Source: a virus
Taxonomy: Duplodnaviria; Heunggongvirae; Uroviricota; Caudoviricetes
Length of the DNA: 9,500 nucleotides
Virus record (IMG/VR): IMGVR_UViG_2648501498_000020
Direction: 5' to 3' (one strand)
In this document: one piece after another, positions 1 to 9,500 of the stretch
Position numbering within the stretch: the first letter of the stretch is position 1
Layout of the letters: each line of letters begins with the position of its first letter
Notes under the pieces: model-generated
Seen by the model: only the letters and a program-made list of their open reading frames with translations
What the model was told of the DNA's origin: nothing
Databases searched by the model: none
Made by a program: the position numbers and the translations under genes

Positions 1-345
1 AGATGAAAAATTGAACCACACATTATATTGCTGATCACTATAATATGGCGGTGTCATGTCATGAACAGGACAAGGGTGCTTATCGAAATTGGTAGAAATA
101 CCGATTAAATTTGCAAAGTATATTTTCAACTGTCCACTATCAAAAAGGTATATTTCCAAAGGATTATTTTCAGATATTTGATCTTTTAAATCATTAAACT
201 CCCTTGGACATTGTTCATCAGCTTTTGCCCACCATCCCCACCAAACTGAGCCCTTAGATTTGATTATATCCTGATGTAGAGTGATTGTTTCTCCGGCGGG
301 TGTGACCAAATCCCTGAAACGAAGAATGATAGTTTTGCAATTCAT
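1..345 (-). CDS. hypothetical protein, AT-rich accessory gene (first 115 codons; continues beyond window start)
   Basis: Minus-strand ATG at 345-343 with AAGGAA Shine-Dalgarno 8 nt upstream; 115 codons to position 1 with no stop (MNCKTIILRFRDLVTPAGETITLHQDIIKSKGSVWWGWWAKADEQ...). Region is about 70% A+T, unlike the rest of the window. Not in the ORF track because it runs off the edge. Product not recognised. Confidence 0.6.
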   Translation of the reverse strand, partial: MNCKTIILRFRDLVTPAGETITLHQDIIKSKGSVWWGWWAKADEQCPREFNDLKDQISENNPLEIYLFDSGQLKIYFANLIGISTNFDKHPCPVHDMTPPYYSDQQYNVWFNFSS

Positions 346-430
346 TTATATTCCTTCAATATTCATTTAAATGTCGGGTTCTCTCTACTGATATAAATTA
401 CAATTAAAATCATTGGTAGGGAAGCGCGCA

Positions 431-449
431 GTGCTTTCCCCGCCTCGCC
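431..449. other. cos site: P2/P4-type 19-nt cohesive-end sequence
   Basis: Plus strand reads GTGCTTTCCCCGCCTCGCC, the exact reverse complement of GGCGAGGCGGGGAAAGCAC, which I recall as the P2/P4 cohesive end. GC-rich hairpins follow at 450-520. Confidence 0.75.
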
Positions 450-550
450 CGCCCGCTTTGCGGGGCGGTTTCAATGCAGTTGCACTGACACGCTCAGGCC
501 GCGCCGGGAATGGCGCGGTCTGCAGAAAATGAGGCAGGAAAACGCATGCA

Positions 551-583
551 AAGCCATGCACCTTATCGATGCATGGCTTTTTT
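551..583. terminator. terminator-like hairpin between psu and cos
   Basis: Perfect 10-bp stem AAGCCATGCA (551-560) / TGCATGGCTT (570-579) with 9-nt loop, followed by a T-run on the plus strand (578-583); on the minus strand the hairpin is followed by GCATGCGTTTT. Lies just downstream of the psu stop, so it probably ends the sid-delta-psu transcript and may act bidirectionally. Confidence 0.45.
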
Positions 584-612
584 CAGTAAAACGGGCGGAT
601 TTTCGGGGAATT

Positions 613-1185
613 TTACACAGACTGATGTGATTCCAGTTGCGCACTTTTACGCGAAAAAATCATGTTCTGCGCAGGGGTGAATTTTTCACGGCTGTCATCC
701 ACCGAAGCCGCGTCAGGCCTGAATCCGATGGTCGTTAAAATGTCACTATCCTGTGCGGAATAATTAATTTTTTCCCCCTTCGCAAGCCAGGACAGAAGGG
801 CTTCACGCAGGGCATCTGTGGCACGCTGTATGGCACAGTTTCGGGCAATGGCCGTCAGCTCACTGTATCCCATCAGCTCCGGTGCCAGTGCCGCCGCCAG
901 TGCTGTGCCGTGCTGCTGCATAAAATCATTCAGCCGGTCGCGGATGCTGATGTGCTGAACGGCTTCATGCGAACGAATATAACGACCGGCGGCCTGATTC
1001 ACCTGCCATTTTCTGACTTCGATAATATTGCGTAATTCGTCCAGGCGACTGACGTTTCTGCCTTCCCCGGACAGAAGCCGCAGATATTCCTGTTCGGCCG
1101 CAGCCAGCTCATTTTTGCGTTGCAGCCATGCTGCTTTGTTATTCTGACAGGTGTCAAAGGCCTGCTGTAAGGCTGTGCTCTCCAT
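613..1185 (-). CDS. psu: Psu, polarity suppression protein (Rho antagonist / capsid decoration), P4-type
   Basis: 190-aa ORF recognised as P4 Psu; length matches my recollection. GAGAAAGAGA purine-rich SD upstream of the ATG. Last gene of the minus-strand late operon. Confidence 0.9.
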   Translation of the reverse strand: MESTALQQAFDTCQNNKAAWLQRKNELAAAEQEYLRLLSGEGRNVSRLDELRNIIEVRKWQVNQAAGRYIRSHEAVQHISIRDRLNDFMQQHGTALAAALAPELMGYSELTAIARNCAIQRATDALREALLSWLAKGEKINYSAQDSDILTTIGFRPDAASVDDSREKFTPAQNMIFSRKSAQLESHQSV

Positions 1186-1258
1186 CGTTATCTCTTTCTC
1201 ATCATGCTGAAGAATAAAAATACGGTGTGCGGCGACGGCCGGGGTTAACCGGCAGCCC

Positions 1259-1759
1259 TCATTCCAGACGCAGCGAATATGATTGTGTTTTTAACCGTAC
1301 TGGCGGCAGTTCCTGTTTTTCATGCAGGCGTTCTGCCAGTTCGTCCGGCGTGACCGGGCGGACAATGAAGCGGGTGATGGTCTGAAGCGTTTTAAACACC
1401 AGACCACAGCCCGGATCCGTGCACACATAAAAACGCTCGGTGACTTCCTGAGACAGACGCCGCGATGTTCTTGACAGTGCAAGGCCTTTACATCTCCGAC
1501 AACAATATCCGGTAACAAGCATTCTTTTCGGGCGTTTCATACTGCCGGAGGCTGACGTCAGTGAATCGCGGTATCTCTGTTTGCCTGAAATGTATTCCAT
1601 TCCTGAATCTTTACTGTCAGAGAAAAAGCTTTCACTCGCTTCAAATGTCGCAGAGCAATAAATATTCCGGCACTGTGCAATCATTATCTTGGTGCCATCG
1701 TCCATGAAATGTGCGCGACGAGTGTGAGCAACATGTCCACACGACGGGCAGTAAATCAT
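1259..1759 (-). CDS. delta: Delta, late-gene transcriptional activator (tandem Ogr-like zinc finger)
   Basis: 166 aa with two Cys4 modules (CPSCGH...CRNIYC and CCRRC...CTDPGC), consistent with a duplicated Ogr-type zinc finger as in P4 Delta. Start ATG overlaps the sid stop (ATGA). Confidence 0.9.
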   Translation of the reverse strand: MIYCPSCGHVAHTRRAHFMDDGTKIMIAQCRNIYCSATFEASESFFSDSKDSGMEYISGKQRYRDSLTSASGSMKRPKRMLVTGYCCRRCKGLALSRTSRRLSQEVTERFYVCTDPGCGLVFKTLQTITRFIVRPVTPDELAERLHEKQELPPVRLKTQSYSLRLE

Positions 1760-2490
1760 GACAGCAGTCCTCTGGCCTTAAGCTCTGCACCCTGCTGGTC
1801 TATTTTGTCCTGCCACACCTTGCGCTGTGCCGGTGTGCCTGCCACCTCATAATCCATGTGCGGGAGTGTTGCCGCTGACAGCCCGGTCAGCCGGAGAACC
1901 GGCTCGCCGGTGAGGCTGATTTGCATCTGTTTAATTTTCTGTTCCAGCGATGATTTCACCTGCTGCATGACAGCCTTTTCCGGTGCGACGTAGCCCTGAT
2001 GGCCGGTGGTGTTGGCGAGCGGATTTTCCTGTACCAGAATGCTCAGATGCATTGCCCGGACAAGCGCCTCACAGGTTTCATTCAGGGCGTGTTCCAGCTC
2101 ATGCTCTGCATACAGACTCAGAAGGTGATGATGTGCCTTCCGGTAGGCGGTGGCCGTGCTGTCACACGCCCCTTTCAGGCGTTCGCGTTCAAAATTCAGC
2201 ACCACGGCCAGATTGTCATATTCCTGTACCAGCTCCCGGCGTGCCACGCGCTCAATGTGGCGCTGTTTCAGCTCGTCGCTCAGGACACCACCGGCTGCAC
2301 GAAAGGCCGTGCGCCAGTCGTCAGCGTCGTTTCCGTCGGCCTGCGCCAGCGCATTTTTTTCCTGCTCTGCCCGTTCAATGGCCGTGACGGTCTCATCCAT
2401 CAGGCGGGCGTTCTCAAGATGGGCGGCTCTGGCCTTTTCCAGTTGTGCCAGCGCGGGTTGCAGATATTCAGGGATGGTGTTGTCAGACAT
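1756..2490 (-). CDS. sid: Sid, external scaffold / capsid size determination protein
   Basis: ORF track begins at a GTG (2508), but the ATG at 2490-2488 has AGGAG 8 nt upstream and gives 244 aa, the P4 Sid length I recall. Coiled-coil-like, Ala/Glu/Leu/Gln-rich sequence. Confidence 0.85.
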   Translation of the reverse strand: MSDNTIPEYLQPALAQLEKARAAHLENARLMDETVTAIERAEQEKNALAQADGNDADDWRTAFRAAGGVLSDELKQRHIERVARRELVQEYDNLAVVLNFERERLKGACDSTATAYRKAHHHLLSLYAEHELEHALNETCEALVRAMHLSILVQENPLANTTGHQGYVAPEKAVMQQVKSSLEQKIKQMQISLTGEPVLRLTGLSAATLPHMDYEVAGTPAQRKVWQDKIDQQGAELKARGLLS

Positions 2491-2562
2491 TTTCCGGCTC
2501 CTCGTCACTTCAGGTTAAGAAAATTGTGACGTACACCGGACAACAACACGACGCATTGCAGA

Positions 2563-2580
2563 TGTGCCAGCCCTGACACA
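2563..2580 (-). promoter_or_regulatory. candidate Delta/Ogr activator site (TGT-N12-ACA) for Psid
   Basis: TGTGCCAGCCCTGACACA fits the TGT-N12-ACA dyad of P2/P4 late promoters. Its centre is about 55 bp upstream of a predicted minus-strand start near 2516, leaving a ~26-nt leader before the sid ATG. Low-information motif. Confidence 0.3.
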
Positions 2581-2659
2581 GGAGACTCATCCTCAGACCG
2601 GCAAGCCAGGAAAAGGTCGCAGGAAAAACCGGCTTACTGTTTGTTTTTTTATATTTTAC

Positions 2660-2763
2660 TGTTCACCTCTGTTCACCTTAATAAAAAAGATAAGTAATAC
2701 AGTAAATTAAATGGTGAACAATCGCAGTAATGACTGTTCACCGTCTGTTCACCACTGTTCACC
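2660..2763. repeat. ori-like iteron cluster: six copies of octamer TGTTCACC (five direct, one inverted)
   Basis: TGTTCACC at 2660, 2670, 2735, 2746, 2756 and inverted GGTGAACA at 2713; an 80-bp stretch of >80% A+T follows (2770-2850). Same octamer recurs in crr (7494-7796). I recall P4 ori as holding six such alpha-binding iterons about 4.5 kb from crr; the spacing here is about 4.9 kb. Confidence 0.7.
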
Positions 2764-2922
2764 CGTTCATGGACTTTTTGTGCTGTTTATTACTTTTTAT
2801 TTTTATTAATTAACTGAAATAAATAAGAAAAAAACAATTTGTATTTCACTATAATTTTTTCCAGCTCCTTCCAGAGCGTTTTAAAGCTATCTGGCGTTGA
2901 TGTGCAAAAAACACACAGCAAT

Positions 2923-2940
2923 TGTAAGGCTGCCGGAACA
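2923..2940 (+). promoter_or_regulatory. candidate Delta/Ogr activator site (TGT-N12-ACA) for the late leftward promoter PLL upstream of vis
   Basis: TGTAAGGCTGCCGGAACA; centre about 110 bp upstream of the vis ATG. A start near 2986 would lie about 400 bp upstream of the PLE-like promoter, as I recall for P4. Confidence 0.3.
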
Positions 2941-3042
2941 AATCCCCCCTGTTGCGTCTGCTGAAAATATTCACAAAATAAAGCGCTACCCGAAGCCGGA
3001 CGGACTTATCCGGTGCTGTATGGACATTAACGAGGTAGCCCG

Positions 3043-3309
3043 ATGCAAGCTGTTTTTTCTTCCCCGTCTCCCGCCCCTGTGACGCCACTGATGCCGCTGC
3101 CGGACATCACGCAGGAGCGTTTTTTACGTCTGCCGGAAGTGATGCACCTGTGCGGCCTGTCACGCTCGACCATCTATGAACTCATCCGTAAGGGGGAATT
3201 TCCGCCGCAGGTGAGTCTTGGCGGTAAAAATGTGGCCTGGCTGCACTCTGAAGTCACTGCATGGATGGCCGGGCGCATTGCCGGACGCAAACGGGGGTAC
3301 GACGCATGA
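3043..3309 (+). CDS. vis: Vis, AlpA-family small DNA-binding regulator / excision directionality factor
   Basis: 88-aa ORF; GAGG SD 5-6 nt upstream of the ATG at 3043. [28 protein letters not shown] is a typical AlpA/Xis-type helix-turn-helix. Stop TGA 3307-3309 overlaps a downstream ATG (ATGA). Confidence 0.8.
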
Positions 3310-3905
3310 TGATGCCCGCTCTGCAAAAACTCCCTTTTTCTGGCTTGCCTTTTTCCGGCATTTGCGGATATAGTTTTTCCGCTGCCGCAAAATCGGCAGC
3401 CGGGCGTGAGAACCCGAGCAATCTAACGGCGACATATGACGCGCCATGCGTCTTTTTTTGTGTCGCAATCAACGCCACAGAGCGCCAGATTATGGTGTGG
3501 TGTGTGGTCAGTCGTGCAGATGGCATTCCGTGCATCCTGCCCGCGTCCGCTCATTATGCCGCAGAGTCAATGGTAGCTCAGGCGGGGCAGCCTCCGGGCT
3601 GGCCGGTATCCGTTAGAGCCGGTATTCTCACCCCCGTCTGGGCTATCGCCATCGAGCGTGAGAACTCCGGCGATAGCGTAACCTGCTATCTAACGGAGGC
3701 TGCCATCATGGCTACAACCCTTACCCCCTCACACCCTGAATTTGTCTTTGTGTTTGCGGCTGTCCGTCGCGCAGACCGTCATCCTCGTATCTGTATGCTT
3801 CGCACCGTCGCCGGTGATGAACGCAGCGCCCGCCGTTCCCTTGTCCGTGACTATGTGCTCTCCCTTGCTGCCCGTCTGCCGGTGGTGGAGGTGTCCCGTG
3901 CGTAA
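3306..3905 (+). CDS. long ORF (199 codons from ATGATGATG) spanning the immunity leader; possibly translated only on read-through from vis
   Basis: ORF track gives 3261..3905 (214 aa); the ATG at 3306 overlaps the vis stop (ATGA) and gives 199 codons. It runs across seqA, cI and seqC, and its start lies upstream of the PLE-like promoter, so PLE transcripts could not encode all of it. Coding status uncertain. Confidence 0.35.
3345..3374 (+). promoter_or_regulatory. candidate sigma70 promoter (PLE-like): TTGCCT -N18- TATAGT
   Basis: -35 TTGCCT (3345-3350) and -10 TATAGT (3369-3374), giving a predicted start near 3381, just upstream of seqA. Sequence inspection only. Confidence 0.4.
3406..3429 (+). 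promoter_or_regulatory. seqA: leader target complementary to cI RNA
   Basis: GTGAGAA...TCTAACGG; both blocks are exact reverse complements of the CCGTTAGA and TTCTCAC blocks at 3610-3631. Confidence 0.5.
3560..3650 (+). ncRNA. cI: cI immunity RNA region (approximate bounds) containing seqB
   Basis: seqB CCGTTAGAGCCGGTATTCTCAC (3610-3631) is complementary in two blocks to seqA (3406-3429) and seqC (3658-3696), with GC-rich hairpins around it (CAGCC-TCCG-GGCTG). Matches the P4 arrangement as I recall it. Ends not determinable from sequence. Confidence 0.5.
3658..3696 (+). promoter_or_regulatory. seqC: second target complementary to cI RNA, overlapping the kil ribosome-binding site
   Basis: GTGAGAA (3658-3664) ... 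TCTAACGG (3689-3696); the 3' block overlaps GGAGG (3695-3699), the SD of the ATG at 3708. Confidence 0.5.
3708..3905 (+). CDS. kil: Kil-like small protein (65 aa; in-frame internal start of the long ORF, eta possibly nested)
   Basis: ATG 3708 preceded by GGAGG (3695-3699) at 8-nt spacing; [65 protein letters not shown]. First start codon with a strong SD downstream of the cI region. kil/eta naming is from memory of the P4 literature. Confidence 0.5.
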
Positions 3906-4185
3906 TAAAAAAGCCCCTCAGACCGTCTCAGCACGTCATGACGCCCGTGAACACCTCAGCATTGAGGCTTACCATAAGCTCAACCGCGCCAGCGCCGTAT
4001 CCCGGTTTGTTGGGGGTGATTTGATTCACCGTGAACTCTCCGGTCTGCATCAGCTCTACATTCCGCATATTTTCAGCTACCTGAATGAAGATATTGATTT
4101 TGTGCTGAATGAGCTGAAAGCCAAAGGCCTGTGCCGCGATTTTCTCGCCCAGCAGAAAGACCGGGGAGACAGGACGCATGTTTGA
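3898..4185 (+). CDS. epsilon: Epsilon, anti-repressor of helper prophage (derepression of P2-like helper)
   Basis: GTG start at 3898 with GGAGG 8 nt upstream, overlapping the kil stop; gives 95 aa, the length I recall for P4 Epsilon. The ORF-track version (3742..4185) has an implausible N-terminal extension overlapping kil. Confidence 0.7.
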
Positions 4186-4633
4186 TTTTCCCCAGCCCGG
4201 TGAGATTTACCGTTCTGCCGGTTTTCCCGATGTGGCCGTGGTCGGCATTCTGGAAGACGGTATTCCGTGGGAAATGCCGTACCGCTGCCCGGACATTGTC
4301 TGGAATCCGTACCGCCGTAAATTCAGTATCCTTGTGCGTATCCTCGCTGACGGGCGCACCACAGACATCCCGCTGGGGCGTTTTCTGCGGGAATTTACCT
4401 GTGACCGTCCTGACCTGTTCAAACGCAGCCCCGTAAACCGGCATGCGGTACTGAAAGAAATGGCCGGAGACCCGGAATTACAGAAATGGCGGGAAAAATA
4501 TCTGGATATTTACCCGCAGGACCCTGTTCCGGTCAGCCGGGCAGCACCGGTAGCGCGGGAATGGCGGGAAATTCCCCGCACGGAGCCTGACCCGGAAACC
4601 ACCCCGGATAACAGTTACCGCAATTATCTGTAA
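4178..4633 (+). CDS. hypothetical protein, P4 orf151-like
   Basis: 151-aa ORF; start overlaps the epsilon stop; GGGGAGACAGG SD-like sequence upstream. Same size and position as P4 orf151. Confidence 0.8.
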   Translation: MFDFPQPGEIYRSAGFPDVAVVGILEDGIPWEMPYRCPDIVWNPYRRKFSILVRILADGRTTDIPLGRFLREFTCDRPDLFKRSPVNRHAVLKEMAGDPELQKWREKYLDIYPQDPVPVSRAAPVAREWREIPRTEPDPETTPDNSYRNYL

Positions 4634-4768
4634 TTAAAAAACGACACCCGAAAAATTAAATGTGCGTATTCGCGCAGGGATACGCACGTCTTCAGGAGAC
4701 GCAGATATGCCTTATCAGTTAATGCAACCGGCACGGAATGCAGTCATCTGTCACAGGGAGGAAAGCAA

Positions 4769-5089
4769 ATGAAAACACCCTTACCGCCCGTCTTACGCGC
4801 TGCCCTTTACCGTCGCGCTGTCGCCTGTGCCTGGCTGACCGTGTGCGAACGTCAGCACCGCTACCCGCATCTCACCCTTGAGTCACTGGAGGCGGCCATC
4901 GCCGCTGAGCTGGAAGGCTTTTATCTGCGCCAGCACGGTGAGGAAAAAGGGCGTCAGATAGCCTGTGCCCTGCTGGAAGATTTAATGGAATCCGGCCCCC
5001 TGAAGGCCGCGCCGTCGCTGTCCTTTCTCGGGCTGGTTGTGATGGATGAACTCTGTGCCCGTCACATAAAAGCGCCGGTACTGCACTGA
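4769..5089 (+). CDS. hypothetical protein, P4 orf106-like
   Basis: 106-aa ORF with GGGAGG SD 7-8 nt upstream; sits immediately upstream of alpha. Function unknown. Confidence 0.75.
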
Positions 5090-5103
5090 AGGAGAACAAC
5101 ACC

Positions 5104-5976
5104 ATGAAAATGAACGTAACCGCCACCGTCAGCCATGCACTCGGCCACTGGCCGCGTATTCTCCCGGCGCTGGGGATTCAGGTGCTGAAAAACCGTCATC
5201 AGCCCTGTCCGGTCTGTGGCGGGAGTGACCGCTTCCGTTTTGATGACAGGGAGGGGCGCGGCACCTGGTACTGCAATCAGTGTGGTGCCGGTGACGGCCT
5301 GAAACTGGTTGAAAAGGTGTTTGGTGTTTCCCCGTCCGACGCGGCCGCAAAGGTGGCTGCCGTGACCGGCAGCCTGCCCCCGGCTGACCCGGCAGTGACG
5401 GCCGCCGCCGGTGCTGAAACAGAAGCCGCCCGGAAGAACGCCGCCGCACTGGCACAAACCCTGATGGCGAAAACCCGTCCCGGAACCGGTAACGCCTACC
5501 TGACCCGCAAGGGCTTTCCCGGCCGGGAATGCCGGATGCTGACCGGCACACACAGAGCCGGTGGCGTGAGCTGGCGTGCCGGTGACCTTGTGGTGCCACT
5601 GTATGACGACAGCGGCGAACTGGTTAACCTTCAGTTAATCAGTGCTGACGGCCGTAAGCGCACCCTGAAAGGCGGACAGGTCAGGGGCACCTGTCACATC
5701 CTTGAAGGACAGAATCAGGCCGGAAAACGTCTGTGGATAGCGGAGGGATACGCGACCGCACTTACCGTGCATCACCTGACCGGTGAAACGGTGATGGTGG
5801 CGCTTTCTTCCGTGAACCTCCTTTCTCTGGCCAGCCTTGCCCGGCAGAAGCATCCGGCCTGTCAGATTGTCCTTGCCGCAGACCGTGACCTCAGCGGTGA
5901 CGGCCAGAAAAAAGCCGCCGCAGCCGCAGATGCGTGTGAAGGTGTTGTTGCCCTGCCGCCGGTCTTCGGTGACTGA
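5104..5976 (+). CDS. alpha: Alpha N-terminal fragment: zinc-binding + TOPRIM primase domain (ends at in-frame TGA)
   Basis: AGGAGA SD 8 nt upstream; CPVCGGSDRFRFDD...WYCNQCG zinc-binding motif and EGYATALT primase motif. Ends ...PVFGD then TGA at 5974-5976. Confidence 0.85.
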   Translation: MKMNVTATVSHALGHWPRILPALGIQVLKNRHQPCPVCGGSDRFRFDDREGRGTWYCNQCGAGDGLKLVEKVFGVSPSDAAAKVAAVTGSLPPADPAVTAAAGAETEAARKNAAALAQTLMAKTRPGTGNAYLTRKGFPGRECRMLTGTHRAGGVSWRAGDLVVPLYDDSGELVNLQLISADGRKRTLKGGQVRGTCHILEGQNQAGKRLWIAEGYATALTVHHLTGETVMVALSSVNLLSLASLARQKHPACQIVLAADRDLSGDGQKKAAAAADACEGVVALPPVFGD

Positions 5977-6066
5977 AATGATGCCTTCACGCAGTACGGC
6001 GGGGAAGCCACCCGTAAGGCCATTTACGATGCCATCCGGCCACCGGCTGAAAGCCCGTTCGATACC

Positions 6067-7437
6067 ATGAGCGAAGCGGAGTTTTCCGCCATGAGTACCA
6101 GCGAAAAGGCCATGCGTATCTATGAGCATTACGGCGAGGCGCTCGCGGTCGATGCCAACGGCCAGCTTCTGTCCCGCTATGAAAATGGTGTCTGGAAGGT
6201 GCTGCCGCCACAGGACTTTGCCCGGGATGTGGCCGGGCTGTTTCAGCGTCTGCGCGCGCCGTTCTCCTCCGGGAAGGTGGCCTCCGTGGTGGACACCCTG
6301 AAGCTGATTATTCCGCAGCAGGAAGCCCCCTCCCGCCGCCTGATTGGCTTTCGTAACGGCGTGCTCGACACGCAGAGCGGCACGTTCCACCCGCACAGTC
6401 CGTCACACTGGATGCGCACCCTGTGCGATGTGGATTTCACCCCACCGGTGGAAGGGGAAACGCTGGAAACCCACGCCCCCGCGTTCTGGCGCTGGCTTGA
6501 CCGTGCCGCCGGTGGCCGTGCGGAAAAACGCGACGTGATTCTGGCCGCACTGTTTATGGTGCTGGCAAACCGCTACGACTGGCAGCTCTTTCTGGAGGTG
6601 ACCGGTCCCGGCGGCAGCGGCAAAAGTATCATGGCCGAAATAGCCACCCTGCTGGCCGGGGAGGATAACGCCACGTCGGCCACCATCGAGACGCTGGAAT
6701 CCCCGCGTGAACGTGCCGCGTTAACTGGCTTCTCACTGATACGCCTGCCGGACCAGGAAAAATGGAGCGGCGACGGAGCCGGACTCAAGGCCATCACCGG
6801 CGGCGATGCGGTGTCCGTTGACCCGAAATACCGGGATGCGTACTCCACGCACATCCCGGCGGTGATTCTGGCCGTGAACAATAACCCGATGCGCTTCACC
6901 GACCGCAGCGGCGGCGTGTCACGCCGGCGGGTGATTATTCACTTCCCGGAACAGATAGCCCCGCAGGAGCGCGACCCGCAGCTTAAGGACAAAATCACCC
7001 GCGAGCTGGCGGTCATCGTGCGTCACCTGATGCAGAAATTCAGCGACCCGATGCTCGCCCGGTCACTGCTTCAGTCCCAGCAGAACTCAGACGAGGCGCT
7101 GAACATCAAACGGGATGCCGACCCGACGTTTGATTTTATCGGCTATCTGGAAACCCTGCCGCAGACCAGCGGCATGTATATGGGGAACGCCAGTATCATC
7201 CCGCGTAATTACCGTAAATACCTCTATCACGCCTATCTGGCCTACATGGAGGCAAACGGCTACCGGAATGTACTCAGTCTGAAAATGTTCGGGCTGGGGC
7301 TACCGGTGATGCTGAAGGAATACGGACTGAATTACGAGAAGCGCCATACCAAACAGGGGATACAGACCAACCTGACACTGAAAGAGGAAAGCTACGGCGA
7401 CTGGCTGCCAAAATGTGACGACCCTGCGACAACCTGA
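6067..7437 (+). CDS. alpha: Alpha C-terminal fragment: D5/SF3-type helicase (Walker A GPGGSGKS) plus C-terminal DNA-binding region
   Basis: Same reading frame as 5104..5976; 30 stop-free sense codons lie between the TGA and the ATG at 6067. Walker A GPGGSGKS, Walker-B-like VILAVNN. No convincing SD before 6067. Confidence 0.8.
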   Translation: MSEAEFSAMSTSEKAMRIYEHYGEALAVDANGQLLSRYENGVWKVLPPQDFARDVAGLFQRLRAPFSSGKVASVVDTLKLIIPQQEAPSRRLIGFRNGVLDTQSGTFHPHSPSHWMRTLCDVDFTPPVEGETLETHAPAFWRWLDRAAGGRAEKRDVILAALFMVLANRYDWQLFLEVTGPGGSGKSIMAEIATLLAGEDNATSATIETLESPRERAALTGFSLIRLPDQEKWSGDGAGLKAITGGDAVSVDPKYRDAYSTHIPAVILAVNNNPMRFTDRSGGVSRRRVIIHFPEQIAPQERDPQLKDKITRELAVIVRHLMQKFSDPMLARSLLQSQQNSDEALNIKRDADPTFDFIGYLETLPQTSGMYMGNASIIPRNYRKYLYHAYLAYMEANGYRNVLSLKMFGLGLPVMLKEYGLNYEKRHTKQGIQTNLTLKEESYGDWLPKCDDPATT

Positions 7438-7453
7438 CCATCATGACTCATCT

Positions 7454-7478
7454 GACCGGCATCTGCCGGTCTTTTTTT
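7454..7478 (+). terminator. intrinsic terminator downstream of alpha
   Basis: GACCGGC-ATCT-GCCGGTC hairpin followed by TTTTTTT, 17 nt after the alpha stop. Confidence 0.7.
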
Positions 7479-7493
7479 ATCCCGACATCCCCC

Positions 7494-7796
7494 GAAGGTG
7501 AACAATCTACTGTTCACCCTTCACCGTATATTCACCCGTTATCACACTGAAATTAAAAGAGAAAAACGAAAGGTGAACAGTGTGAACAATCAAATCAAAA
7601 AAAACTTTTTTCTCCCTGTGTGATTTTCAGTACGGGGGATTAATCACCGGTATGAGTCACACCAGCAGAATGCCGGAGGTGAAGAATCGAATGTTCACCC
7701 TTCACCCATTATTCACCACCTATCATACTGAAATAAAAGGAGAAAAAAGAAAGGTGAACAGTGTGAACAGTTCTTTCGAAAAAAAATTTTTTTCCT
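7494..7796. repeat. crr (cis replication region): two ~120-bp direct repeats about 181 bp apart, each with TGTTCACC / GGTGAACA iterons
   Basis: Repeat 1 about 7494-7615, repeat 2 about 7675-7796 (GAAGGTGAACAATCTACTGTTCACCCTTCACC... vs GGAGGTGAAGAATCGAATGTTCACCCTTCACC...; both end AAAGGTGAACAGTGTGAACA + A/T run). Matches my recollection of P4 crr as two 120-bp direct repeats separated by 60 bp. Confidence 0.75.
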
Positions 7797-7939
7797 GTAC
7801 GATATAGCATCAATCCAAGTAAAAATGCGCTTTAATTTCACATTAACTTACAGCCATTGGTATACAATTAGGTATACGCACAAAAACTGAATTAAACAAA
7901 ATCGTTAAAAATCAAAGCAATATAATATTTATTCAAACT

Positions 7940-7962
7940 CCGCCAGCCCACCAAAATTCTCC
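7940..7962 (+). other. possible att core: CCA-terminated motif resembling the 3' end of a tRNA/tmRNA
   Basis: ATTCAAACTCCGCCAGCCCACCA has a TTCAAA T-loop-like segment, an acceptor-like segment and a terminal CCA, about 210 bp upstream of the int start. No full tRNA can be folded: upstream sequence is AT-rich. Speculative. Confidence 0.25.
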
Positions 7963-7999
7963 ATCGGTGATTACCAGAGTCATCCGATGAAGTCCTAAG

Positions 8000-8047
8000 A
8001 GCCCGCACGGCGCAAGCCCGCACGGCGCAAGCCCTGCGGGCTTTTTT
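8000..8047 (+). terminator. tandem 15-bp repeat (AGCCCGCACGGCGCA x2) forming a GC-rich hairpin followed by TTTTTT
   Basis: Two exact tandem copies at 8000-8014 and 8015-8029; stem GCCCGCA (8016-8022) / TGCGGGC (8035-8041) then T-run 8042-8047. On the plus strand, between the CCA motif and int. Confidence 0.45.
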
Positions 8048-8101
8048 GTGCCTTGAATTTGTCCCGCGAAGTCTGATGCCAACTAATTAAATCCGAACCT
8101 T

Positions 8102-8154
8102 TTAGGCACCTTGTTAGGCACCTCATAAAGCTTTATTGTTTTTGAGGTGCCTAA
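8102..8154. promoter_or_regulatory. three copies of 10-mer TTAGGCACCT (two direct, one inverted) upstream of int: candidate Int arm-type / autoregulatory sites
   Basis: TTAGGCACCT at 8102-8111 and 8114-8123; exact reverse complement AGGTGCCTAA at 8145-8154, ending 19 bp before the int ATG (8173). Confidence 0.45.
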
Positions 8155-8172
8155 AACTATGGAAACCCGGCA

Positions 8173-8229
8173 ATGGCAAGACAAACCAAACCTCTATCCG
8201 TTAAAGAAATCGAATCTGCTAAACCCAAG
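8173..8229 (+). pseudogene. int: tyrosine integrase (P4/CP4-57-like), N-terminal ~19 codons only, interrupted by IS insertion
   Basis: MARQTKPLSVKEIESAKPK resembles the conserved N-terminus of P4-family integrases. After codon 19 the frame reads [22 protein letters not shown], which belongs to the IS terminus. Junction placed at about 8229/8230 where the IS-like TGT begins; exact base uncertain. Confidence 0.6.

Positions 8230-9500
<1,271 letters not shown>

Follow-up and report, generated by a model that had tools for sequence, protein, structure and literature searches.

The psu-int hotspot of P4-like satellites, which lies adjacent to cos, was defined by Rousset et al. in 2022 (PMC9122126). 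Their Table S1A lists P4 cargos labelled 'Metallophos + HAD_2' (WP_000995671/WP_000995670 + WP_000734786), and a cassette from E. coli HVH3 was synthesised as pFR96 'Phosphoesterase + HAD' (Table S2B), under 'additional tested systems' and with no mechanism proposed. Here we analyse a 9,500-nucleotide (nt) stretch of DNA (hereafter the window; IMG/VR record IMGVR_UViG_2648501498_000020), in which an earlier reading of the letters alone (the original prediction) had singled out an unrecognised AT-rich gene next to cos as candidate anti-phage cargo. We conclude that positions 345-1 very probably hold the first 115 codons of misA, whose product is the sensor-effector in a type I Metis (PUA-Cal-HAD) system carried as cargo in the cos-proximal psu-int hotspot of an ssrA-adjacent P4-like satellite.

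Systems of this kind have been described under several names. DefensePredictor (Science 2026, PMC13092281) led to the validation of DS-9, a metallophosphatase and HAD pair from an ECOR strain that is active against Bas1, Bas26 and Bas60, with small plaques in the case of T5. Its D207A and N292A mutations abolish defence; the word 'PUA' is absent from the text and the mechanism is left open. Zhang et al. (bioRxiv 10.64898/2026.01.15.699771, January 2026) characterised the PUA-Cal-HAD system of ECOR28, whose locus length and residue numbering are those of DS-9. There, a hexamer of PUA-Cal carries six HAD subunits, and the PUA pocket holds adenosine monophosphate (AMP) at rest and binds N6-methyl-deoxyadenosine monophosphate (m6-dAMP or m6dAMP) from DenA-dependent breakdown of the host's Dam-methylated DNA. 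The ligand drives filament formation, upon which HAD converts deoxynucleoside triphosphates (dNTPs) to diphosphates (dNDPs) and Cal converts dNDPs to monophosphates (dNMPs). The DNA mimics Arn, Ocr and Gam inhibit this system.

Metis itself, comprising MisA and MisB, was reported from E. coli 401675, 402837 and E308 by Osterman et al. (bioRxiv 10.1101/2025.11.05.686725, November 2025). Of these, the 401675 system defended best and served for the in vivo work; expressed from pBAD on a colE1 plasmid, it protects against T2, T4, T5, T6 and T7. Infection aborts, nicotinamide adenine dinucleotide (NAD+) is completely depleted, and some dNTPs and nucleoside triphosphates fall. Defence requires host dam and phage denA, with escape mutants found in denA, and added m6dAMP is enough to arrest growth. 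On its own, 401675 MisA defends but is toxic and slows growth, and MisB catalytic mutants keep defence and become toxic. Purified MisB dephosphorylates m6dAMP, the 402837 homologue cleaves NAD+ to nicotinamide mononucleotide (NMN) and AMP in vitro, and pocket mutations are reported to abolish defence.

Two further comparisons place these systems among their relatives. Type II Metis (MisC-MisB) is the Rst_Hydrolase-3Tm of Rousset et al. 2022 (E. coli 2862600). It shares the MisB HAD phosphatase and is likewise a P4-hotspot cargo dependent on m6dAMP and Dam, but instead of the PUA-calcineurin enzyme its effector is a protein with three transmembrane segments, a predicted pore; DefenseFinder flags DS-9B as Rst_Hydrolase-Tm. 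Other PUA-like readers (ASCH, YTH, EVE/THYN1 and the McrB N-domain), at 7-14% identity, read modified bases in RNA or DNA polymers, whereas the ligand of MisA is a free mononucleotide.

Identity of the cargo gene

The window is identical to an entire draft contig, JHSF01000101.1, so that the truncation of its leftmost gene marks an assembly boundary and not biology. As had been predicted, a minus-strand open reading frame (ORF) starts at an ATG (345-343) behind a good Shine-Dalgarno sequence, GAAGGA, 6 nt upstream (352..357, read 357-352), and runs 115 codons to the window edge with no stop; both the translation and the Shine-Dalgarno sequence were read directly. Using a truncated fragment of the satellite's alpha gene as a lineage marker, we found this contig and a sister contig, JHTG01000057.1, which equals the window over all 9,235 overlapping bases. 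All misA positions beyond codon 115 and the whole of misB were read in the sister contig and in E. coli PK6. This leftward extension, which the original prediction had called for, gave the complete gene, a HAD gene and int, and bore out that only the N-terminus is visible in the window: full MisA has 537 residues (WP_000995671, annotated 'metallophosphoesterase family protein' in PK6). The sister copy of misA is intact, has no internal stops and differs from PK6 by one substitution outside the window (N231D). Beginning 2 nt after the misA stop, the co-oriented misB encodes a 279-residue HAD hydrolase (WP_000734786) that is intact in the sister contig and identical to that of PK6.

We compared this cassette with the published constructs. 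All seven gene-specific 'Metis 401675' primers match exactly, four within the window (203-228, 232-252, 293-312 and 316-345) and the other three in the PK6 cassette, where they fall at the end of misA and at either end of misB. In the visible parts of Table S1 of Osterman et al., the 401675 MisA N-terminus and residues 319-398 are identical here and differ from a 93% variant, and the C-terminus of 401675 MisB is identical as well. Likewise, the visible 399 nt of the pFR96 insert equal window 78-476 exactly, with protein 1 identical over the 399 residues shown; Rousset Table S1A entry NKPB01000060 is a further locus in our collection (L011). Judged by these matches, the window gene is assigned to the 401675-type misA (CHARACTERISED allele), and identity to an experimentally characterised member argues for membership in type I Metis / PUA-Cal-HAD. 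Architecture, operon order and pocket residues are also those of the 401675 system, with no difference in the 115 window codons; the published copy differs in being expressed from pBAD on colE1 rather than in its native context, and the sister contig differs by N231D. Table S1 further identifies the E308 allele with DS-9A and 402837 as a close variant of the E308 allele. DS-9A and DS-9B are 34% and 52% identical to MisA and MisB here, with the DS-9 catalytic residues conserved as D212 and N288.

The published mutants of this allele can be mapped onto the window. The W39A primers, built in this allele, replace codon 39 (window 229-231), as labelled. Those labelled 'Metis 401675 MisA R9E' (Supplementary Table 2) replace codon 11 (AGG, R11, window 313-315) with GAG, not codon 9; the label is either a slip or another numbering, which is relevant solely to cross-paper comparison of mutants (ECOR28 R10 is R11 here).

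Full-length MisA carries a Pua-like domain (PF24405, residues 6-171, 1.5e-38) and a calcineurin-like Metallophos domain (~206-495, 2.2e-13), and MisB matches HAD_2 and Hydrolase, all from Pfam. The part of misA in the window (codons 1-115 of 537; 1..345, minus strand) covers most of the sensor domain and contains GSVWWGWWAKADE. The segment flagged as unusual in the original prediction, VWWGWWAKADE, is PUA motif II (205..246, minus strand; V34-WWGWWAKADEQC-P47, consensus VWWGWWxKxxExxP), the family's defining ligand-pocket motif. Within it, W36, G37, W38, W39, K41 and E44 are invariant in our alignment of 37 homologues, as are the R9-F10-R11-D12 motif of the pocket (310..321, minus strand) and P99, Y101 and Y102 of motif V (T98-P-P-Y101-Y102, or TPxYY; 40..54, minus strand). 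Together with H24, these motifs (RFRD, VWWGWWxKxxExxP and TPxYY) all fall within window codons 9-102 and are invariant in homologues down to 34% identity. The pocket residues match ECOR28 F9, R10, H23, W35, W38, K40, Y100 and Y101 one-to-one. In ECOR28, W35A, W37A/W38A and K40A (W36, W38/W39 and K41 here) abolish defence, F9 and R10 contact the ligand, and R10A and Y100A/Y101A each abolish defence; these tyrosines stack on adenine in the cryo-electron microscopy (cryo-EM) structure (bioRxiv 10.64898/2026.01.15.699771).

The catalytic residues of the complete proteins tell the same story. The phosphoesterase motifs D212-x-H214, G250-D251, G287-N-H-D290, N375, H422-H423, G464-H465 and H467 are invariant, as read in the PK6 and sister copies, and MisB, a C1-cap HAD protein encoded downstream, carries D8/D10 (DxD), K181 and G205-D206/D211. 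Every residue whose mutation abolished defence in ECOR28 or DS-9 is conserved here and invariant across the 37 homologues; the family appears to be under strong purifying selection on its pocket and catalytic residues.

The AlphaFold model of MisA (predicted local distance difference test score 85 for the full protein and 95 for the N-domain alone) places the catalytic domain, by Foldseek, nearest to the nucleotide phosphodiesterases Rv0805 and SMPDL3A, with the B. subtilis YydB integrative model as best match. The top 50 comprise YydB, Rv0805, SMPDL3A/B, Lmo2642, GpdQ, purple acid phosphatases, Vps29 and 5'-nucleotidase, and neither Mre11 nor SbcD is among them. Searches with the full protein sequence and with an N-domain profile gave nothing meaningful against PDB sequences, and no PUA-Cal structure appears to have been released. 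These neighbours bear on an alternative in which the system resembles type IV restriction, the PUA domain reading modified bases in phage DNA and the metallophosphoesterase acting as an Mre11/SbcD-type nuclease. We regard this as very improbable, and reject it as contradicted by published biochemistry: the structural neighbours are small-molecule or nucleotide phosphodiesterases, DNA binding by the ECOR28 proteins is methylation-nonspecific and m6A-containing DNA does not trigger filaments, the free mononucleotide m6dAMP suffices in vitro and in vivo, and defence depends on host Dam, not on modification of phage DNA.

Defence-system profiles recovered the pair unevenly. PADLOC v2 (2023) left MisA unrecognised, with weak PDC-S60, 'Effector' and PDC-S10 matches, and MisB matched its 'Hydrolase' model (the hydrolase-TM of Rousset et al.) at 4.7e-64 over the full length. 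Because PADLOC sees MisB alone, a defence-profile search by itself would half-miss the system.

Position in the P4 hotspot and distribution

The gene was predicted, from circular order, to lie between cos/psu and int, and this is the order seen in both extended copies: smpB - int - misB (HAD, 279 residues) - misA (537 residues) - cos - psu in the sister contig, and int - HAD gene - misA - cos - psu in PK6, where the integrase adjoins ssrA. On the right, the fixed flank of the hotspot is a 19-nt string at 431..449, which reads GGCGAGGCGGGGAAAGCAC on the minus strand and which, as an exact string match, we take to be the P2/P4 cohesive end (cos). Between this and the misA start codon lies the AT-rich leader of the cassette (346..423, minus strand), delimited by megablast breakpoints at 423/424. 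In a search of 5,426 complete E. coli genomes, other P4-like elements align solely from 423/424 rightward, and this position, 7 nt from the cos sequence, is the hotspot boundary. Location between cos/psu and int, variability and a breakpoint at cos thus all mark the cassette as an occupant of the hotspot. The first core P4 gene to the right is psu (polarity suppression protein; 613..1185, minus strand, as misA; Pfam Psu 1.1e-88 and PK6 annotation).

Base composition sets the cassette apart by 20 points of G+C, with 36.2% over 1-345 and 34.5% over 1-423 against 54.3% over 424-9500. The original estimate of about 70% A+T for 1-420 is slightly high for the whole segment (65.5% over 1-423) and correct for its left half (30.5% G+C over 1-200). 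The accompanying 50-60% G+C elsewhere agrees with the average and is not uniform, as 2600-3000 has 32-37% G+C. This second AT-rich stretch lies between sid and an AlpA-like gene and is presumably the divergent P4 promoter and regulatory region; low G+C alone is therefore no marker of cargo in this element.

Positions 1-423 are found at 100% identity in 3 of the 5,426 genomes, whereas the cos-psu-delta-sid backbone is present at ≥80% coverage in 867 (3,155 matching places in 2,256 genomes). By this distribution the gene is non-core cargo, and not a core protein conserved in all P4-like elements, the outcome that the original prediction had named as contrary to it. Beyond E. coli, a search of 5.8 billion proteins returned 833 homologues. 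The best 120 of these all combine PUA-like and Metallophos domains, are nearly all ~530-555 residues long, and belong to Proteobacteria, Myxococcota, Omnitrophota and Acidobacteriota. Of five distant homologues drawn from other classes and phyla, all five have a HAD gene of ~280 residues directly downstream on the same strand, and their neighbours include TIR, SIR2, PD-(D/E)XK, transposase and phage-replication genes.

Generic annotations of such proteins ('metallophosphoesterase family protein', 'HAD family hydrolase' and '3',5'-cyclic AMP phosphodiesterase CpdA') would suit a core or housekeeping P4 gene, or a metabolic phosphatase of the host that takes no part in conflict. Such an identity is scarcely credible given how few genomes carry the gene (3, against 867 in which the P4 backbone is nearly complete), the low G+C of the cassette, the defence- and mobility-type neighbours just listed and the published experimental defence phenotypes, and we reject it as refuted by gene distribution.

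Individual distant loci (L004 7733-9499 and L006 1-3980) offer further context. A type I Metis locus of Pseudoalteromonas neighbours a Phage_GPA replication-protein gene that possibly derives from a satellite or prophage. That of Bradyrhizobium is surrounded by TIR and SIR2/pYEATS genes and transposases.

Signal, output and expression of the cassette

In the work of Osterman et al. on this allele, phages such as T2, T4, T5, T6 and T7 break down the Dam-methylated chromosome of the host and thereby release m6dAMP. By analogy with the characterised homologues, this ligand would be held in an aromatic PUA pocket formed by F10, R11, H24, W36, W39, K41, Y101 and Y102, all encoded in the window. F10 would stack on the base, R11 and K41 would contact the phosphate, and Y101/Y102 would form part of the aromatic pocket. 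Ligand binding is expected to switch on the C-terminal phosphoesterase, cleaving NAD+ to NMN and AMP, with activation probably proceeding through a hexamer-to-filament transition as in the ECOR28 cryo-EM structure. Destruction of nucleotides (NAD+ and/or dNTPs) would then result in abortive infection, and MisB would act as a safety valve that removes m6dAMP arising as basal signal. We adopt the common core of the published models, m6dAMP-triggered nucleotide destruction leading to abortive infection; the output with the best documentation for this allele is NAD+ cleavage, accompanied by loss of dNTPs. The prediction of an anti-phage cargo is upheld in that defence has been published for this allele under pBAD.

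Several points weigh against this interpretation. Only 115 of the 537 codons lie in the window, and the remainder of misA and all of misB are taken from the sister contig, which carries N231D relative to the tested allele. The best NCBIfam model for MisA, NF053862 DS9_1_antiphage (400 bits, E 1.5e-119, protein 9-499, model 1-479 of 486), falls below its equivalog cut-off of 420 bits, and MisA belongs to a sister lineage of the same system type outside the DS-9 equivalog group. Both mechanistic papers are preprints, and they dispute the output: for ECOR28 at native expression, Zhang et al. report that dNTPs collapse, that NAD+ changes little and that the HAD is essential, and they attribute NAD+ loss to overexpression (bioRxiv 10.64898/2026.01.15.699771). 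The activity published for this allele was seen under pBAD induction. On low-copy pSC101 with its own upstream region, pFR96, which holds the same DNA from the same hotspot, was inactive against lambda, T4, P1, 186cIts, CLB_P2, LF82_P8, AL505_P2 and T7, and against P2-like phages TIR-NLR was the sole protective P4 system tested (PMC9122126).

The dispute over output gives rise to the strongest alternative, in which the system and its m6dAMP trigger are the same and the output is collapse of the dNTP pool, not NAD+ loss. A preassembled MisA6-MisB6 complex would polymerise on ligand, MisB acting as an essential co-effector (dNTP to dNDP) ahead of the MisA Cal domain (dNDP to dNMP), and NAD+ cleavage would be a latent secondary activity that overexpression brings out. 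ECOR28 shares with this cassette the three-domain, two-gene architecture, the m6-dAMP trigger, dam/denA dependence, abortive infection, and the motifs VWWGWWxKxxExxP, TPxYY, DxH / GD / GNHD / H / GH / GHxH and HAD DxD. Under its native promoters it shows dNTP collapse in vivo, with a HAD-then-Cal cascade in vitro and a cryo-EM filament, and its defence is lost upon HAD deletion or HAD catalytic mutation (bioRxiv 10.64898/2026.01.15.699771). All HAD residues mutated there are kept in MisB here (D8, D10, W16, E57, K181, G205, D206 and D211). However, the exact allele showed complete NAD+ depletion, defence by MisA alone, and MisB mutants that were defensive but toxic. ECOR28 differs from it in sequence (34% identity for MisA, 52% for MisB), in an HAD that is essential, in a dNTP output produced by a HAD-to-Cal filament cascade, in being active from native promoters and in the escape of T4 via Arn. 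Its loop relaying the m6-dAMP signal, DLGKSEG (K14), reads DLVTPAG here. We consider dNTP collapse a substantial possibility for this cassette, if one falling somewhat short of an even chance.

The pFR96 result raises a separate question of expression. An alternative is that, within P4, expression of the cassette is absent in effect or too weak for defence; it would be a hitch-hiker, or cargo in decay, that is active on artificial induction alone. In keeping with this, pFR96 (window 476 leftward, including the 346..423 leader as part of its 'native promoter' insert) was inactive against eight phages including T4 and T7, both of which the pBAD construct restricts; there is no sigma-70-like site between cos and the ATG; and in this copy of the satellite alpha is cut short by a nonsense mutation and the right end carries an IS21-family gene (see below). 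The negative panel can be explained without silence, because T4, T7 and lambda encode Arn, Ocr and Gam, inhibitors of the homologous system; P1, 186 and the P2-like phages are temperate and, by our inference, not expected to degrade the host chromosome to mononucleotides. Restriction of T4 and T7 under pBAD fits a scenario discussed by Zhang et al., in which the inhibitors are overridden when expression is higher. Furthermore, misA and misB are intact without internal stops in the sister contig, pocket and catalytic residues are under strong purifying selection across the family, and DS-9 and ECOR28 defend from native promoters. We think an inactive cargo unlikely, though the stable hairpins between psu and misA, like the lack of a sigma-70-like site, leave some room for a silent native promoter.

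A related idea, to which we assign a slightly lower probability and which is thus also unlikely, is that the satellite or the infection itself controls the expression or stoichiometry of P4-borne Metis, and that a MisA-MisB filament collapses dNTPs at native level, an output distinct from the NAD+ loss that accompanies overexpression. It arises because the allele is silent against T4 and T7 under its own 131-bp upstream region and strongly protective from pBAD. This might come about if P4 Psu relieves the AT-rich cassette of silencing by Rho or H-NS, or if a promoter lies beyond the fragment that was cloned. If true, this allele would be a natural test case for the disagreement between the two mechanistic models.

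A search for sigma-70-type promoters gave no match between cos and the ATG, the sole one lying inside the gene; we read this as lacking information rather than as a true negative. We also considered, and set aside, transcription of misA together with the P4 late operon (sid-delta-psu), which is on the same strand: the 270-nt psu-misA spacer (346-615) holds several very stable hairpins (z = -5.6 against shuffles), including a terminator-like stem right after psu, which makes read-through from psu into misA unlikely. On the minus strand of 480-612, a 13-bp perfect hairpin, AAAGCCAUGCAUC...GGUGCAUGGCUUU, lies directly downstream of psu, and the same psu-cos spacer has another that is rich in G+C, GACCGCGCC...GGCGCGGCC. 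They probably represent a terminator for psu and a structure associated with cos.

Mosaic lineages and the remainder of the satellite

A second E. coli Metis lineage (WP_042092307/WP_000995674), present in three further complete genomes, has ~60% amino acid and ~66% DNA identity to the cassette. The similarity is uneven: DNA identity to the window is ~91-95% from ~214-222, within PUA motif II, rightward, and ~66% to the left. The high-identity segment spans the start codon, the leader (~91% conserved) and a diverged cos, placing a mosaic junction, common to the two lineages, inside misA at its most conserved motif (window ~214-222 against L002 and L003 5887-6267). This pattern suggests cargo exchange by recombination anchored in cos and in the ultra-conserved 5' end of the gene.

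Two loci of this lineage, in KC-Dl-1 and GmM062 (L002 and L003), have the appearance of islands, flanked by IS481, IS66, IS110 and a frameshifted integrase fragment. We considered whether the cassette moves independently of P4 in E. coli and dropped the idea, as a diverged cos remnant adjoins the cassette in both; because of this cos, the loci are recognised as decayed P4-like satellites. All six occurrences in complete E. coli genomes adjoin P4 cos sequence, intact or diverged, so it seems that in E. coli type I Metis, like type II, travels mainly on P4-like satellites.

The rest of the window bears out the P4-type proteins that had been recognised there. Pfam identifies Psu, Ogr/Delta (1259-1759), an AlpA-like regulator, an Ash/Icd-like protein and the alpha primase-helicase, and Rfam, with all hits above gathering scores, identifies the P4 immunity RNAs c4-a1b1 (3368-3420), isrK (3381-3458) and C4 antisense RNA (3566-3653). 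These RNAs (3368-3653) overlap the Ash/Icd-like ORF (3261-3905), and the region is intact at the RNA level.

The alpha gene is interrupted by a premature stop at 5974-5976, where TGG (Trp) in intact PK6 has become TGA by a single G-to-A change at 5976. Two Pfam-supported ORFs result, a Zn-ribbon/Toprim fragment of 290 residues (5104-5976) and a D5_N/DUF5906/Pox_D5 fragment (6067-7437). The same truncated product is listed in 33 blocks of a public collection, of which 24 contigs were read; given this recurrence, the stop is a lineage-defining mutation and not a sequencing error. The satellite is probably replication-defective while its defence cargo is intact. Homology to PK6-type P4 elements stops at 7954 and is followed by an istB-like ORF (8296-8958, minus strand; IS21-family IstB ATPase, PF01695, 2e-100), annotated IS100kyp in related genomes, and the contig ends inside the ORF after istB. 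The segment 7955-9500 is an insertion at the right end of the satellite, of an insertion sequence that probably also caused the break in the draft assembly.

The novelty implied by the original prediction does not stand. Both genes, their place in the P4 hotspot and the way the system works are already in the literature, the cassette having been listed and cloned from the hotspot in 2022 and the mechanism described in 2025-2026, and the exact allele has been cloned twice. As a calibration, a defence cargo and its signal-binding motif were picked out from base composition and synteny alone. What this analysis adds is a connection of Metis to P4 satellites that seems to be missing from both mechanistic preprints (the word 'satellite' is absent from their main texts). 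Furthermore, one allele has opposite published phenotypes depending on expression level, so that the choice between NAD+ and dNTP output, and between MisB as safety valve and as co-effector, is testable on this cassette.

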